A stretch of DNA of 64,000 nucleotides, taken from NCBI GenBank assembly GCA_039588295.1, contig JBDHAB010000019.1:1-64000 (forward strand), given 5' to 3'. The position numbers were made by a program. Positions 13,401 to 40,400 of this stretch are shown here, in pieces. Position 1 is the first letter of the stretch. Every line of letters starts with the position of its first letter. Origin of the DNA: Gemmatimonadota bacterium (GTDB taxonomy: Bacteria; Gemmatimonadota; Gemmatimonadetes; Gemmatimonadales; GWC2-71-9).

Positions 13401-16400
13401 TACCGCGAGATGCATCGTGTCCTGGACACCGCCCGCGTCATCTTTGTAGAGGAGCGCCATAGATGGAAGTGGCGGCAGAGGCTCGGGCATCCCCCCGCCC
13501 TGGCAGGCGATGACTGGGAGGGCAGCTGCCGCAAGGAGCATCATGGTTGAGGATCGCATGTCACACCTGTGGCTTCTCTGGTTTCGATTTGCGGACGCCG
13601 GCATGGCTGCGTGGCAACGGGGCGTCCCTCACCGCACGATCTGGGAAACGCATGTCAAACCGGACATATAACCTGGGTTGAGAATCGGGTCTCCAACCGG
13701 CGTGATCTGTCCTTCCACGACGTAGCGACTTCCCGTCTGGGGCTCGAGGCTCCAAATCACCCGATAGCGCTGGCCCAGTTGCTCCCATTGCGCTTCCTGG
13801 AACAGGCGGAAGAGCGCCCACGGGCCGCTGAAGCGAAGGAGGTCCACGTTTTGGCCGCCCACCGTGACCCTCAGCAAGACGTCTCGCGCGCGCTCGCCGA
13901 CCCACTGAAAGTTTACACTCGTCCGGACGGTTTGTGTGAACGTCGCCGGGCGCCCATCCAGGGCAACAGTGACCGCGGACGCTCCGGCTGGCGGCGACAG
14001 TTGCAGGGCGAAGCCAAGCCGAGGCCCGGCTCCTTGATCGTCGAATAGCGTTTCGGACACGGCGGCGGCGCGCCGGAAGAATTGGACGAAGCGCGACTCG
14101 GGCTGCACGGCGGCACTGGGGTCTCGGCCCCAGCGTCCGGCTCGTCGTACCATCGCATTCCCGAGCTCATCGCTGTTGAGCCGCATCAACAGGCCGTCCT
14201 GTGGATGGAAGATGTCCGCAACTTCCGCTATCGTGGCCTCGTCGCGTCCGCTGGGGCTGAAAGGATACTTCGCGATGAGCCGACTGAAATCGCGACAAAA
14301 CGCACTCCCACTCGCATTGACCCGGTTCCGCGGCCCAGCTCTGATCGCTCCCTCGAGCATCCGCTCGACTCGCACGATTGGATTCTCGATGAGCCGTCGC
14401 ACGTCCCCGCTGACTTCTGCCGCCTCTTCGCTCCCGCTGAAGGTGCTCACGAGCTGGCTTGCGACCTCGCGTGCCCTGCGCGCTTGGCTGAGCGCCTCCT
14501 CGCGCGCAGCGGCATCCTCCCGATCCCGCGCCGCGCGCTCGAGCGCCCTACCCAGTTCGCCAAGTTGGCTGGTGTACTCGCGGTTCTGATCCACGATGAG
14601 TTGGTCGCCGATGGGCGGAGGCGTGACGGCGTGCACGGGCTGGAATCCCCGTGCGAAGGTCGAGTCCAAGGTGGTGTCGGTGTTGGCTGCCGCGTCAGCG
14701 AGCATCCGCAGCAGTGGTGATCGATTCCCACCCAGCGCAGCGATACTGCGAGCGGCACCGCTGACACCGCCGGAGACCCGCACTTGTGCGGACCGGAGAA
14801 ACGTGCGCCACTGCTGCGCGTATTCGCCTTCGTAGCGCGCTCGCAGCGTTCCGACCAGACTCGCCATGTTTTGTTGGCCGAGCGACTCGCATCCGATTGT
14901 CTCGAAGACCCAGCGTTCGCCGCCAGGTGACAAGTCGCCGCTATCGAACTCCGCGTGTATGGCCGTCCATCCGTCGGCAGTGAACGCCGCAGGTATCACG
15001 TGGGGATTCACCACCCACTCGTCATCGAACCGAATTGCTGAGCTGGCGGCCGCCCCGCGTGTGAGGAGCGACTGGTACACACTTTCCTCGTCGCTCAGGC
15101 CGGCCAACGCTCTGCACGCGGCGCCCGAGAGGTTCGGGTCGTGCGGGACGGCACAGAGATCGGTCGTGCAGAGCCCTCCACCGTAGAACAGAAGCTGGCT
15201 GCCGGCGCGCTCTCGATCGGCGTCCCCGAGCCGCCGAGTGTCTGGCCAGTATCCGAGTAACGCGGCAGCAGTGTCCTCGGTCAGGCGGTCGGGACGAGAG
15301 GTGGTGACCAGGTGGTTGGCCAACAGCCGATGCACACGGGCGAAGGTCGAGCGTTCGGGATTGGCCGTCACGGCGCGGAGCTCAGTGAGCAGCGAGTCGC
15401 GGATCCCCCCGAGCATGGCGTCCTGGAAAGCCCGCCAATAGACGCTTCGAGCGGGCCGTGCGAGGGACGTCCCCGTGTACAACCCCCACCGGAGCCGCAG
15501 CGGGGGACCTCCCCGCTGGTATCGTGTGAGCCGGTCGAGTTCGAGTCGCAGGTCCTCGAGTCCGGCGAGCGCCGTGGAAACCGACTCGGACGGTCCCAAC
15601 GCGTTGACCGCCCGTGCTGCTCGGCCTACCCGGGCTTCGAGCCGCCGGTTGGCGATGAAGGAGACTGTGAAGCCGAGGGTCAGCAACACCGCCACGGCTG
15701 CGAGCGTCGCGAACGCGACGCGTCGTAGCTGCTTGAGCCGGTACCCCGATTGCGTTACGCCGAGCGCAACTTTGTCGCGCAGGATGACCCGATGGAACAG
15801 GTCTGAGAGGAAGAGCCACTGCGGCACGCGCCTCGTTCCCGCGGCCGCAGGAGGTGCCTGTGGTGGTGGGGCTCGGTGCTCATCTGGGCGCAGCACCTGG
15901 GTAGCGCCAACCTGTCGCACGTCGGGGGTCACCGGCGCGGGGCGAACGGCTGCTTCCACCAGCACGGCGCGCACCCCTGCAAAGTAGAAGCCTCGCAGGA
16001 ACGGGCTCAGTTCCAGCTGCCGTGGCTTGCACAGCTCGACCAGGAACTGGGTCGCCAGCGGGGTGATCTTCCGCAATTCTCGAGGAAACTCGTAGGCCAG
16101 CGCTCGCTGTGCCACGTCGGTGTCGCGCGGCAACATGCGTAAGCGCTGCTGAGCAAGTGACTGGAGCAGCTCCTCGAACGCATCACTCACACGCCGGTAT
16201 TCCCGATCTGCGTACGAGCCCGCCGTGCTCGGGGGTGGGGTGCGCAACGTGGCACCGAGCACTTGGCGTGTCTCCTCATCCGCCAGGTTTCGCACGAATT
16301 CGGAGAAGCAGCGGAGGCGGTCGGCTTTGGTGAACACCACGTAGACCGGCAACCGGATGCCGAGCGACCGTGAGACCTCCATCAAGCGCTCGCGGAGTGC

Positions 16401-37400: not shown

Positions 37401-40400
37401 TATGTCGAGCTCTTGATGGAGCAGGAGCTCTATCCCGACGCGGTTCGGTTTCTGGCGCATGCGCTGCCCAAGCGGGAGGCCGTGTGGTGGGCGTGGGTGT
37501 GTGCGCGGCGGGCCGCGGGCGAAGAGCCGCCGGATGATATTCAGGCGGTGCTCGAGGCAACCAGGCAGTGGATTGCCGAGCCGACGGACGGGCATCGGCG
37601 TGCCGCCATGGAACTGGCCGAGCAAGTCGGGTTCGACAAACCGGCCGGGTCTGCCGCGCTCGCAGCGTTCTTCAGCGGAGAGTCCCTTGCCCCCGCTGAT
37701 GTCGAGCAGCCCGTGCCACCCGGAGAATACATGGCGGCCAAAGCCATCACAGGGTGCATTCTGTTGGCGACCGTTGGCACGGAGCCGGAAAGAGCGGGGG
37801 AGAAGTTCCAGGACTTCGTGCAGCAGGGGATGGAGGTGGCGGAGAAGATCGAACTGTGGAAGCCGCCGGAGGAGTCACGCGGATGATTCGCTCTCGGACA
37901 CAGACGAGGTAGACGGCAATGGGATTCCCAGCCGCTAGAGTGGCCGATATGCACGTGTGTCCCATGGTGACCCCGCCAGCCATTCCGCACGTCGGAGGAC
38001 CCATCCTCCCACCCGGGTGCGTGCTAGTGCTGATCGGCGGAATGCCGGCGGCGCGGCTGGGGGACATGGCCACGTGCGTCGGCCCGCCGGATGTGATCGT
38101 CAAGGGTTCGCCGACCGTGCTGATCGGTGGCATGCCCGCGGCCCGAATGCTGGACATGACGGTGCATGGCGGGACAATCGTCTCTGGGTTCCCGATGGTG
38201 TTGATCGGGCCGTGACCTCCCTACGCCAGGGACCCTCCAATCGGCCCTCACCGTTTCGCCGGAGATAGCAGTCGGCCAAGTAGAGCTGAATATGTCCCTG
38301 CCAAGCACGATTCGAGACGTGGGTCGCGGTGTAGTTGGATTGACGCGTAGACCCAAGACGACACCCGGGGGTCTTGGCATGTGTGATGAGTTTGCCGGCT
38401 CTCGCAAAGGTACTCTCGTTGCGCAGGCCGCATCTCCGTTAGGGATTCGAGTCCTCGCGGAGTTTGACAAAGAGAATGGTGTCATCTGGGCAAACGAAGC
38501 CCTGCTGCAAGCAATGGCAAGGGCACGCAGTACTGGAACAAAACTGAGCGAGGCCAACGTCGCAACGCTCACCCATGAATTTGCTCATGTGTTGGACTAT
38601 GAGGATATCTTCGAAAAATTCAAAGACAGAGGGAGAATTACTGCCGAGTTAGCGGAAATCGCTTCTGCGTTACGAACCCGGCTGGCCGAAAAGGTGAACA
38701 ACACGACGGAAGTCCAGTTTATGCAACACTATCTCGCCAAGGAGAGGTCCGCGGAAGAGTATGCGAAGAAGATTACTGCAGAGCTCAGAGGGTATCATGG
38801 CAGCCTACGAGCATTCTGGGTGAGCCAAGCCCTGGATACATGGGCTCATAACACCAAAACAACGTATGAAGAGGATGCCCGCGGTACCTATAGGAGAATA
38901 AAAAGGCAACTTAAGGAACTCGGTAACTCTCCGTCGAAAGTGGCAGCCGAAGCGGAGAAGAAGAAGAAGTACAGACAAAAATTGCTGCCCGTTTATACAA
39001 TCGTCGATATCTTCCCTGGAAGAGAGGAGTCTCTCACGTTACACAACCTGTTGGAGATGATAAGCGAATACCATGTGGTGATAGTAGTATCGGTGCCTAT
39101 TGAATCGAGGTAGAAGAAGGGCTCGTTTCCGTATCGCGTCTGCGATCGAGTGGCGCTCGCATGCGCAATTGCAGGAGGCCGGAGCAATCATGTCAATCTG
39201 GACTCGAATCTTCAGGAAAGTGGCCGACCCCCGGAACCAGCTGGGCCCGCGACGAGAGGAGCGACGAGAGGAGCGTCCGTGCTCTCCGACGCCTCCACGA
39301 GATCCTGAGCCGGTCCATCCTCCGGAAGCCGAATGCGCAACGGGGCCCGATCCCCGAATTCGTGCCCACCGGCCGGGGCGCCGCGGGAAGCTGCGGTAGC
39401 GGATTACTCCGCTTGCGGTCGCCGCCGGGTTCCCGAGGTCGCTCAGCGTCGCTCGGTCAAGTGCGGTCGTCGAAGGCCGCGAGATATGGCTGGTCCCAGG
39501 CGATGTCGAAGCGCTGGCAGCAGTCGTCGCAGCGCATCGCCTGCGGCCGCCCGATCGGGAGTTGCCGGTAGCGGCAGCTGGGGCACACCGCATAGCCCTT
39601 GGCCCAACGGGCCGGTATCACGGCCGAGTTGCGGGCACGTGACACGATGGTCCATTGGGCCGGCCGAGTGGCAACGAGCTCCAAGTGGCGGAGCGGTAAG
39701 GACCGCGGCTTTCCGTGCACGTCGAGCAAGACCTCTGTACGTCCCAGCGCCACGGTCCGGTACCACGCGCCTCGGCGCAGGCCGCAGTCGACATCCTCGC
39801 GCAGACGCGCCCATTGTGCGACGGGCAAAGCCTCAGTCTCCAGTCGAGAACAACTTCCAATTGAGCCGGTGGTGGACGGTAAGGCGGTGGGATACGTCAC
39901 ACAATACGTGGAACGCGCACCCCTCGCTGCCGCCGCCGAGCGTTGCCAGAGACGAGCGTTGCCAGAGACGAGCGTGTGCGCAGGAATTGTCAGGAGGGCG
40001 AAAGCGAAGCAGGCGGATAGTCACTCAGGCAAACGGTATTGAAGGCTTCCGTGTCGGCCTTTCGCCCTCCTCACTCAACGAGTGATGCAAGAGCCACGCC
40101 AAAGTGGCGTCCTCTGAGGTGTCAGCGTCGATGCTCGTGGTTGCGAATCTCGGTGGGAAGCACGGTGCCCCGACCGAGATACTTGGATATCACCCGTCCG
40201 TGGGGCTCCAAACGCGGTGTTCTGTCTGGAACGTGGGAATCCTTGACGTGAAGCCAAGGACGCCGAGGCACCGCACCTGTACGACCCCCACGCCACCGTA
40301 GAGTTCCCGCCGGAATGACCGCGACCTCCTCGCCTCGACCCCACGGTCGGACTAGCTTGCGGTGAGCCATGCGCGACCCATCAAATCGCCTCAGGACCAG

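Follow-up and report, generated by a model that had tools for sequence, protein, structure and literature searches.

A single-chain TssB-TssC paralogue without sheath domain 1 in a type VI secretion island of a Gemmatimonadota bacterium

Introduction

What is the role of a third sheath-derived gene that lies beside an ordinary tssB and tssC? The question is raised by g02288, which encodes a single TssB-TssC polypeptide in a type VI secretion system (T6SS) island. The island is located in a 64,000-nucleotide stretch of DNA (the window; contig JBDHAB010000019.1) from a Gemmatimonadota bacterium. The arrest of sheath growth in T6SS and the delivery of ClpV to the right sheaths alone are only partly understood, and the known answers (TagA, TagJ and the TssA classes) leave most phyla uncovered. 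A widespread protein built of sheath outer domains, with the unfoldase handle kept and polymerisation impossible, would be an obvious candidate regulator. Members of the family are named 'sheath large subunit' or ImpC in databases, and these names can lead T6SS typing and gene copy counts astray. A published description of the fused family was not found in a literature search.

Gene content of the island

The survey's finding of a near-complete T6SS island at 13.6-38.2 kb was confirmed, and the locus order placed the fused gene next to canonical tssB and tssC as reported. Besides the fused gene, TssM, TssL, two TssK, TssB, TssC, Hcp, TagJ, TssA, TssE, TssF, TssG, ClpV, VgrG and DUF6931 were recognised by Pfam and NCBIfam (Table 1). 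TssJ was not among the components recognised in the scanned ORFs. The 593-aa ORF gave no Pfam or NCBIfam match. The GTG start of tssE, the sole gp25-like gene of the genome, was picked through comparison with relatives. The likely start of tssC is the ATG at 24618, and the corresponding M11 of the ORF was invariant across 16 TssC sequences. One VipB_2 domain was counted in the genome. The N-terminus of ClpV was MNVDLRSLIGRLN, with Leu at the groove position. The island families had been described as absent from the rest of the genus, and a search of the eight other genus genomes gave no match to the fused family or to TssF.

Table 1. Features of the T6SS island and segments of g02288 (positions in the window)
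Feature	Position	Strand	Basis
T6SS island	13629..38215		Pfam/NCBIfam recognition of components
tssM (-), tssL (-), first tssK (-), 593-aa ORF (+)	13629..21005	as given	Pfam, except the 593-aa ORF (translation)
second tssK	21029..22414	-	Pfam VasE 2e-134; divergent from g02288
g02288, fused sheath paralogue, 509 aa	22490..24019	+	ORF/translation; Pfam VipA and VipB
g02288 res. 1-31, N-terminal arm, putative TssB donor strand equivalent	22490..22582	+	hhalign; low pLDDT
g02288 res. 32-132, TssB-like strands and helix (part of sheath domains 2 and 3)	22583..22885	+	Pfam VipA
g02288 res. 133-176, flexible, TssC N-terminus	22886..23017	+	hhalign against canonical TssC
g02288 res. 156-163, ClpV-type motif LLGKVIDQ	22955..22978	+	alignment block
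g02288 res. 177-496, TssC helix H1 and TssC core (domains 2 and 3)	23018..23977	+	VIA-align; Pfam VipB 201-492
g02288 res. 497-509 and stop, family-specific tail P-L-A-G-x-W replacing domain 1	23978..24019	+	conservation
tssB, canonical small sheath subunit	24080..24625	+	Pfam VipA 2-154 of 155, 2e-59
tssC, canonical large sheath subunit	24588..26102	+	VipB and VipB_2; TIGR03355 713.3 bits
hcp, tagJ, tssA, tssE, tssF, tssG, clpV, vgrG, DUF6931, PAAR	26167..38215	+	Pfam, except PAAR
tagJ (ImpE)	26704..27420	+	Pfam ImpE 1.5e-34
tssE (gp25-like)	29248..29730	+	Pfam GPW_gp25; GTG start at 29248
clpV (tssH)	32572..35268	+	Pfam; Leu at groove position
PAAR-motif ORF	37919..38215	+	motif read from sequence, not by Pfam scan

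Domain content of g02288

The reading frame of g02288 was borne out by ORF call and translation, and the Pfam matches were reproduced. T6SS_VipA (PF05591) matched residues 32-128 (3.7e-13, 50 bits, profile 27-124 of 155) and the VipB core (PF05943) matched residues 201-492 (2e-59, 201.5 bits, profile 2-300 of 301). No Pfam match to VipB_2 (PF18945, domain 1) was found in the fused protein; the adjacent canonical TssC carries both VipB and VipB_2. The fused protein scored 197.9 bits against the TssC equivalog TIGR03355 (profile 22-355 of 473), below the cut-off of 271.5, and 42.6 bits against TIGR03358 (TssB), under the cut-off of 97.25. Its identity to its own TssC was 27%, and the TssB-like part (residues 32-132) was 42% identical to its own TssB.

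It had been claimed that the N-terminal 67 residues of TssC were lost. This was contradicted by BLASTP, which aligned residues 134-495 of the fused protein to residues 7-380 of its own TssC, and by hhalign, which aligned 147-496 to TssC 21-381 of 504 (100%). Past TssC residue 381 the fused chain runs 13 more residues, and in this tail region P495, L499 and W503 were invariant among 34 homologues. At the other end, hhalign aligned residues 8-129 to TssB 19-136 of 181 (98.6%). The N-terminal arm may therefore be a homologue of the TssB donor strand, an assignment based on residues of low confidence at the margin of the profile alignment. A strand motif, FG-E/K/Q-I/L, recurs in this arm among relatives, and the low pLDDT is what a free arm would be expected to show.

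The AlphaFold2 model, built from 34 homologues, reached a pLDDT of 80.4 and a pTM of 0.80. The pLDDT was mostly above 90 across residues 32-132, and low-confidence stretches were restricted to residues 1-25, 140-176 and 424-431. The low confidence of the linker at 143-176 thus stood, but this linker is not a neutral spacer: the stretch corresponds to the TssC N-terminus and contains a conserved motif of the ClpV-recognition type. Foldseek again returned TssC chains as the best matches (5n8n_B, 8e-21) and TssB chains weakly (E 0.04-0.1). With VIA-align, model residues 194-509 were superimposed on 5n8n_B 62-404 (Z 31.3, rmsd 2.8, 312 residues), and the resemblance to TssC chains ended near chain residue 404. 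All three helices of domain 3, following the definitions of Salih 2018 (PMC5807055), were retained in the model. Judged by these alignments, the protein appears to keep a donor arm of the TssB type at its N-terminus and all of the TssC N-terminus, together with the helix for ClpV recognition and domains 2 and 3. The one part missing is sheath domain 1 (VipB_2), with the handshake acceptor and the C-terminal donor strand.

Extent of the fused family

The family is as wide as the survey had indicated. A protein search in which 8000 candidates were scored gave 1530 proteins at E <= 1e-5; of the best 120 matches, 119 carried both PF05591 and PF05943. The shared architecture, one chain of about 500 aa with both domains and without PF18945, is also that of g02288. 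In the tree, 89 rows including g02288 formed one clade (SH-aLRT 100) on a long stem, separate from canonical TssC of both classes. Derivation from a tssB-tssC duplicate is the best explanation of the family's origin. In a phylum sample, 17 genomes had T6SS sheath-gene matches, and just 5 of them, perhaps 6, carried the fused gene; T6SS as such therefore does not require it. Plasmids of Leisingera, Phaeobacter and Ruegeria carry relatives, and another occurs in Eleftheria terrae; these cultured hosts make a regulatory role testable.

The location mostly within T6SS clusters was also confirmed: a T6SS neighbour was present at 31 of the 42 related loci that had flanks of 8 kb or more on each side. 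The other 11 were orphan copies distant from sheath genes. In three Bryobacterales loci the orphan copy lies right behind a gene for a D2-only Clp ATPase.

The ClpV-recognition-type motif

Within an otherwise variable segment of the fused family, the motif G-x-LLDQ-x-x-E is conserved. Its LLDQ-I/V-L part aligns with the N-terminal motif of canonical TssC, which reads SLLDQIVQQ in the TssC of this island. It also matches 19-LLDEIM-24 of VipB, described as the ClpV-N binding site by Forster 2014 (PMC4239648). L157 of g02288 was invariant in the 34 homologues. The motif of g02288 itself is degenerate (LLGKVI, without the acidic residue), as is that of its nearest relative (LLSRAV).

Motif class and host ClpV class agreed in all 38 cases compared, and for five of them the class was forecast ahead of look-up. 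An LLD-like motif was present in all 27 hosts with a Leu-type ClpV, and an F/L-x-x-L-L motif, like EFASLL of HsiC1, in all 11 hosts with an Arg-6 ClpV. This concordance could be due to co-inheritance in cluster lineages, because it comprises only one independent contrast on well-supported branches, or three on the best tree. In the Arg-6 class a ClpV handle is not established, since the isolated ClpV1 N-domain was reported by Forster 2014 (PMC4239648) to fail to bind the HsiC1 N-terminus. In proteobacterial relatives, long acidic arrays contain many copies of similar motifs; the repetition in disordered arrays points to a linear binding motif, as opposed to a buried helix.

Possible functions

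The handshake of the sheath requires TssC strands b11 and b12, the C-terminal strand of TssC and the N-terminal strand of TssB (Salih 2018, PMC5807055), and HsiB1C1 polymerisation was reported to go via the HsiC C-terminus (Lossi 2013). Without domain 1, g02288 would have neither an acceptor for handshake strands nor a tube contact, and we infer that it is not a lattice subunit. The proposal of an accessory sheath component therefore holds as regards a sheath-derived accessory, while co-assembly into the lattice is unlikely. On balance we lean towards a T6SS accessory family, a non-polymerising sheath mimic that would engage ClpV, and g02288 is probably a regulator of the sheath and not one of its building blocks. 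The ClpV-recognition helix would sit on a flexible stretch and always be exposed, so that the protein most likely binds the ClpV N-domain. By binding there, it would recruit ClpV, buffer it or prime it. The single arm may also attach to an unoccupied handshake site, at the growing end of the sheath or on TssE, and would thereby restrict or mark growth of the sheath. The motif arrays of relatives, the orphan copies behind a D2-only Clp ATPase gene and two natural fusions of relatives to ImpA_N (a TssA-type domain) are in line with this reading. Counting against it are the degenerate motif of g02288 and its nearest relative, the few independent contrasts behind the motif-ClpV concordance, the uncertain handle of the Arg-6 class, the low confidence of the arm and the dispensability of the gene.

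A more specific form of this explanation can be put forward tentatively, and is rather improbable as a whole. The family could be a ClpV-coupled chain-terminator protomer, a regulatory layer of T6SS-i new to science and found in at least 10 named bacterial lineages. Equipped with a single donor arm but lacking an acceptor domain, it would plug free handshake sites at the growing end or on TssE, determine the length or timing of the sheath, and offer ClpV a permanent point of entry. In the proteobacterial forms, the acidic arrays of motifs would then act as multivalent ClpV tethers.

Retention of the N-terminal arm is also compatible with a minor sheath subunit, which would build a specialised ring, located at the baseplate or the distal end and held by the arm and lateral contacts, much like the additional sheath paralogues known from extracellular contractile injection systems (eCIS). 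Baseplate, sheath and cap chains of PVC, AFP, Streptomyces CIS and pyocin aligned to residues 29-509 with Z 15-17, the two ImpA_N fusions are joined by four relatives fused to a complete TssB, and the gene lies directly 5' of tssB here and at 19 of 80 related loci. However, the lack of domain 1 leaves neither a tube contact nor an acceptor site, eCIS sheath paralogues retain their C-terminal domain, the Z scores of baseplate and trunk chains were tied within 1, and 11 of the 42 well-flanked loci carry orphans remote from sheath genes. This explanation is considered unlikely. Slightly less likely again is a ClpV-independent assembly factor or chaperone for free TssB/TssC, TssK or TssA, in which the motif would owe its conservation to intramolecular packing of domain 3. 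The three retained domain-3 helices, the ImpA_N fusions and the non-binding of ClpV1-N to HsiC1 are in agreement with it, as is a tssK in the position of the second tssK here at 10 of 80 related loci and adjoining the fused gene in Eleftheria terrae. It is opposed by the motif segment, which was unpacked in the model (pLDDT about 40), by the switching of motif class along with ClpV class, and by the multiplied motifs in acidic disordered arrays.

An association with VgrG, as cargo adaptor or secreted component, is suggested by the order clpV-fused gene-vgrG in Desulfobacterota, Methylomirabilis and Rhodobacterales and by a vgrG no more than 3 kb downstream at 10 of 80 related loci. This is very unlikely, as Pfam gave no toxin or adaptor domain in g02288, vgrG is 11 kb away here, and the protein folds like a cytoplasmic sheath protein. 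Decay of a functionless tssBC duplicate is close to refuted. The chain is shortened relative to TssB plus TssC, its motif is degenerate, and in one relative (L059) a linker frameshift interrupts the gene; but intact copies of about 500 aa are present in many phyla, mean column identity was 56% with 39 invariant columns over the 34 homologues (43-52% identical to g02288), and the single long-stemmed clade has a conserved tail of its own.

Comparison with known systems

The non-polymerising accessory role that we favour can be set against the known sheath proteins. With TssB/TssC (VipA/VipB, HsiB1/HsiC1; 5n8n, 3j9g, 5urw) the fused protein shares the fold of domains 2 and 3 (Z 26-31), the TssB-type arm, TssC helix H1 and the ClpV-recognition-type motif, and the genes of both lie in the same clusters. 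It differs in being one chain instead of two, in forming a separate clade, and in the absence of domain 1, the TssC C-terminal donor strand and the TssB C-terminal tail.

TssC40/ImpD, the second TssC paralogue of Agrobacterium tumefaciens and Rhizobium, is likewise an extra TssC-derived gene beside tssB/tssC in a T6SS-i cluster and was reported to be needed for Hcp secretion (Lin 2013, PMC3702570). Assignment of g02288 to this type was rejected. Rhizobium ImpD (L085:10360-11748) has VipB 12-323 and VipB_2 without a TssB part or TssC N-terminus, which is the opposite truncation, and it falls outside the fused clade, albeit on a long branch.

Some contractile injection systems use several sheath paralogues. 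The sheath proteins of eCIS, pyocins and phages (9qgl_4A, 6rao_E, 3j9q_A) are single-chain, and their N-terminal arm and middle domain (chain residues about 20-294) align with model residues 29-509. They are lattice parts with a C-terminal handshake domain, whereas the fused protein has no counterpart of that domain. As described by Salih 2018 (PMC5807055), they are without domain 3 or the ClpV handle.

TagJ/HsiE1 and the TssA/TagA types are accessory proteins acting on the sheath surface or ends. TagJ connects TssB to ClpV according to Forster 2014 (PMC4239648), and TssA Nt1 was reported to bind the sheath (PMC11106082); the ImpA_N domain of two relatives provides a further link to TssA. The folds of these proteins are unrelated, whereas the fused family is itself derived from the sheath.

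Domain anatomy of the fused protein

The fused protein, a single chain with a TssB-like and a TssC-like part, fell under the NCBIfam cut-off for TssB as well as for TssC. For closer comparison, alignments were built of 34 fused-family members and, from the related loci, of 16 canonical TssB and 16 canonical TssC sequences. With hhalign, residues 8-129 of the fused protein were paired with TssB 19-136 of 181, and residues 147-496 with TssC 21-381 of 504. BLASTP against the window's own TssC gave the same picture (134-495 with 7-380, 27% identity). The fused protein has no counterpart of TssB's first 18 residues or its C-terminal tail, nor of the final ~120 residues of TssC. 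The survey's finding was right in describing VipA and VipB domains without VipB_2; the N-terminal residues of TssC, which it had considered lost, are retained. An AlphaFold2 model of the fused protein had a pLDDT of 80.4 and a pTM of 0.80, and its best Foldseek matches were TssC chains.

According to the account of Salih et al. (2018, PMC5807055), domain 1 is the sheath's inner layer, domain 2 an interlaced TssB/TssC sheet, and domain 3 a three-helix bundle with one helix from TssB and two from the N-terminal region of TssC. In the same account the tube is formed by a handshake, in which strands b11 and b12 of TssC take up two strands from neighbours, the C-terminal one of a TssC and the N-terminal one of a TssB. 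Domains 2 and 3 are retained in the fused protein, with helices at 112-132, 177-190 and 197-218 in the model, and the TssB arm has a counterpart; domain 1 and the C-terminal donor strand are absent. VIA-align of the model against 5n8n_B gave a Z of 31.3 and covered chain residues 62-404 only. Against the single-chain sheaths of phages, pyocins and eCIS, the alignment of model residues ~29-509 stopped at about chain residue 294. When the genome was searched for a separate partner gene encoding nothing but domain 1, the sole VipB_2 domain and the sole gp25 domain proved to belong to the canonical genes. Polymerisation of HsiB1C1 is described as running through the C-terminus of HsiC (Lossi et al. 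2013). From the loss of domain 1, the lack of a VipB_2 or gp25 domain to supply it in trans and this role of HsiC, we infer that the fused protein cannot be an ordinary lattice subunit.

Gene content of the T6SS island

The island in the window is of type T6SS-i. Both of its TssK paralogues are full-length, and the same pair was seen in the related loci L009, L013, L028, L043, L059 and L064. The ORF between the two tssK genes encodes a proline-rich protein with several G-E-F-T-x-L-F repeats and a hydrophobic C-terminal anchor. It had no Pfam or NCBIfam match, and by tblastn was matched in only one of the 80 related loci (L009). Just past the PAAR gene, an ORF with an H-E-x-x-H motif matches Peptidase_M43 weakly, below threshold, and may encode a metallopeptidase effector. 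Around the fused gene, no promoter-like site was found in a sigma-70 scan. A terminator scan gave a single candidate site, located on the minus strand, a yield not above that of shuffled sequence.

Features of the T6SS island in the window and of two long-form loci
Feature	Position	Strand	Evidence or remark
tssM	13629-17048	-	Pfam/NCBIfam
tssL	17059-17745	-	Pfam/NCBIfam
tssK (first)	17836-19191	-	Pfam/NCBIfam
593-aa ORF	19224-21005	+	
tssK (second)	21029-22414	-	Pfam/NCBIfam
Fused gene (g02288), 509 aa	22490-24019	+	Pfam VipA res. 32-128, VipB res. 201-492, no VipB_2
tssB	24080-24625	+	Pfam/NCBIfam
tssC	24588-26102, likely start 24618	+	Pfam/NCBIfam
hcp	26167-26658	+	Pfam/NCBIfam
tagJ	26704-27420	+	Pfam/NCBIfam
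tssA	27291-29279, start uncertain	+	Pfam/NCBIfam
tssE	29248-29730	+	Pfam/NCBIfam
tssF	29723-31561	+	Pfam/NCBIfam
tssG	31525-32556	+	Pfam/NCBIfam
clpV	32572-35268	+	Pfam/NCBIfam
vgrG	35308-37281	+	Pfam/NCBIfam
DUF6931 gene	37284-37886	+	Pfam/NCBIfam
PAAR ORF, 98 aa	37919-38215	+	three PAAR motifs; its end is the end of the survey's finding
273-aa ORF	38292-39113	+	
Long-form locus L081	13589-17701		acidic disordered regions, tens of L-D-x-L-L-G-type repeats
Long-form locus L083	13498-16689		acidic disordered regions, tens of L-D-x-L-L-G-type repeats

Distribution and genomic context

Of the 8000 candidates scored in the protein search, 1530 matched at E <= 1e-5, and 119 of the best 120 had both Pfam domains at a length of ~500 aa. 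Searches of the genus's 8 other genomes found no TssF and no member of the fused family, and among 30 relatives the two occur together in one and the same genome. The earlier figures for this search, for the model and its TssC top matches and for the absence from the genus were closely reproduced. Lineages named in the record titles of the related loci were Acidobacteriota, Gemmatimonadota, Desulfobacterota, Planctomycetota, Nitrospirota, Methylomirabilota, Rokubacteria, Binatia, Eisenbacteria and Proteobacteria.

As in the window, tssB lies within 3 kb downstream of the fused gene on the same strand in 19 of the 80 related loci, and tssK upstream on the opposite strand in 10. In 14 of the 80, a ClpV-like sequence was matched on the same strand at most 5 kb upstream (a D2-only Clp ATPase in two of these, L038 and L041), and in 10 vgrG lay within 3 kb downstream. 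Where at least 8 kb was available on both sides (42 loci), a T6SS neighbour was found in 31 and none in 11. When the ORFs within 7 kb in the 80 loci and the window were clustered all against all, no conserved non-T6SS neighbour emerged; the large extra ORF clusters were rejected as such, being shadow ORFs over the fused gene itself. Orphan fused loci were surrounded by unrelated housekeeping genes as judged by Pfam, and TssF was encoded elsewhere in all five orphan genomes tested. In three closely related loci of Bryobacterales (L038 8680-9855, L041 1247-2431 and L045 4449-5732), with no further T6SS gene nearby, the orphan fused gene lies directly downstream of a gene for a Clp-type ATPase of ~390 aa with a single D2 ring (AAA_2 and ClpB_D2-small).

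Sheath-gene matches were obtained in 17 of 201 genomes sampled from the window's phylum. Since a fused copy is present in just five of these 17 (split into two pieces in one, cut by a contig end in another), with a fragment in one more, the fused gene is accessory. The two-piece match, in genome G086, resembles that of the fused gene's nearest relative (L059 9929-11472), which is found in two overlapping frames, split within the linker beside a G-rich run; the split may be genuine or may come from an indel in the assembly. The genome of locus L022 (G001, C5:290190-293519) has TssF in three pieces with one TAA, an unreadable ClpV N-terminus and an intact orphan fused gene, a state that may be due to a decaying T6SS or to long-read assembly errors.

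A ClpV-type motif that changes with the class of ClpV

The motif G-x-L-L-D/E-Q-x-x-E, with an invariant L157, is conserved across the fused family inside a variable segment of low model confidence. Its place corresponds to that of S-L-L-D-Q-I-V-E-Q-G-R-F in canonical TssC from the same loci, a motif found in 24 of 24 TssC sequences examined. As reported by Forster et al. (2014, PMC4239648), residues 19-LLDEIM-24 of VipB form the helix by which VipB is bound in the groove of the ClpV N-domain, and in a second class the groove has Arg6/Asp87 and TssC has EFASLL instead. For VipB and EAEC TssC1 with their ClpV N-domains, the reported dissociation constants lie in the tens of micromolar. An LLD-like fused motif (class 1) accompanied a Leu-type ClpV N-terminus in 24 of 24 cases, namely 23 related loci and the window, and the motif F/L-E-R-L-L-G accompanied an Arg-type N-terminus in four of four loci (L027, L042, L060 and L069). 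Leisingera and Qingshengfaniella have an Arg-type ClpV, an EFASLL-type TssC (EFASLL and EFESLL) and the fused motif S-A/D-F-Q-x-L-I-G. In the window (LLGKVI) and its nearest relative (LLSRAV) the acidic residue of the motif is lost.

For genomes with clpV outside the locus, the class of ClpV was forecast from the fused motif and then looked up. All five genomes with a class 2 motif (F/L-x-x-L-L type) had an Arg-6 ClpV, as forecast, and all three class 1 controls a Leu-type ClpV. A single genome with an ambiguous motif had a Leu-type ClpV, and one with an unreadable ClpV N-terminus gave no class. Overall, motif and ClpV class were concordant in 38 of 38 cases. In the tree (117 of 119 rows used) the fused family formed a single clade (SH-aLRT 100) that excluded both classes of canonical TssC, so that the likeness of the fused motif to that of the cognate TssC does not stem from recent local duplication. 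The class 2 motif was spread over three clades of the best tree. As this amounts to only one independent contrast on well-supported branches, the concordance may be due to co-inheritance within cluster lineages.

Cultured relatives and long forms

By tblastn the fused family was found on plasmids of Leisingera, Phaeobacter, Ruegeria conchae, Parasedimentitalea, Qingshengfaniella and Eleftheria terrae. Annotation was checked for three of these, and in both Rhodobacterales checked the fused gene lies between tssH and vgrG. The search also matched enterobacterial plasmids and Vibrio sp. THAF191d (L082 13944-15896). Both were rejected; the Vibrio hit is one tblastn piece that spans canonical tssB and tssC read together, and such pieces can pass for a fused paralogue. 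In the T6SS cluster of the Eleftheria terrae plasmid (L084), four hcp genes stand in tandem and tssK is directly followed by a fused paralogue of 592 aa; a row of RebB (R-body) genes lies ~14 kb downstream.

The fused protein has 1063 aa in Qingshengfaniella and 1370 aa in Leisingera. The surplus residues form an acidic N-terminal stretch that is disordered and contains x-L-D-x-L-L-G-x-L in many copies; motifs of a similar kind come back at the C-terminus. A search for longer proteins of the family gave seven, including the long forms P0134-P0139, whose acidic disordered regions have L-D-x-L-L-G-type repeats by the tens. Four consist of a full TssB, an acidic region and the fused module, two of the fused module, about a dozen L-D-P-x-L-A-A-L-L-G repeats and a C-terminal ImpA_N (TssA-type) domain, and one has a partial VipB domain only. 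These architectures point to linear motifs for some multivalent partner, combined with a physical link to the sheath or its ends.

Proposed role and comparison with known sheath proteins

For the fused paralogue, a real and conserved variant of TssB/TssC, the data show the domain content, the loss of domain 1, the single clade, the conserved class-switching motif and the accessory distribution. It would be non-polymerising, and its ClpV-type handle would always be exposed, whereas that of TssC is taken to stay buried until contraction (Douzi 2016, PMC5048182). Because of this exposure, the fused protein is predicted to bind ClpV, and most likely recruits, buffers or primes it.

A more speculative role concerns the sheath ends. 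Nazarov (2018, PMC5813253) describes both linkers of a wild-type sheath subunit as running to the ring nearer the baseplate, and proposes TssE as acceptor of the first-ring linkers. Based on this linker direction and acceptor role, a fused protomer, which has a single donor arm but lacks an acceptor, might fill a vacant position on TssE or at the growing end, and once docked it could not be extended. A predicted complex of the fused protein and TssE scored 0.00 (mark 0.32), which speaks neither in favour of binding nor against it.

A literature search that covered few of the subscription journals turned up no description of the fused family; in databases its members are named 'sheath large subunit' or ImpC. 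Membership of TssC40/ImpD in the same family was considered and rejected. The Rhizobium ImpD examined has VipB and VipB_2 and lacks the TssC N-terminus and a TssB part, a truncation opposite to that of the fused protein, and was placed outside the fused clade. The closest known entity to the fused protein is the TssB/TssC protomer.
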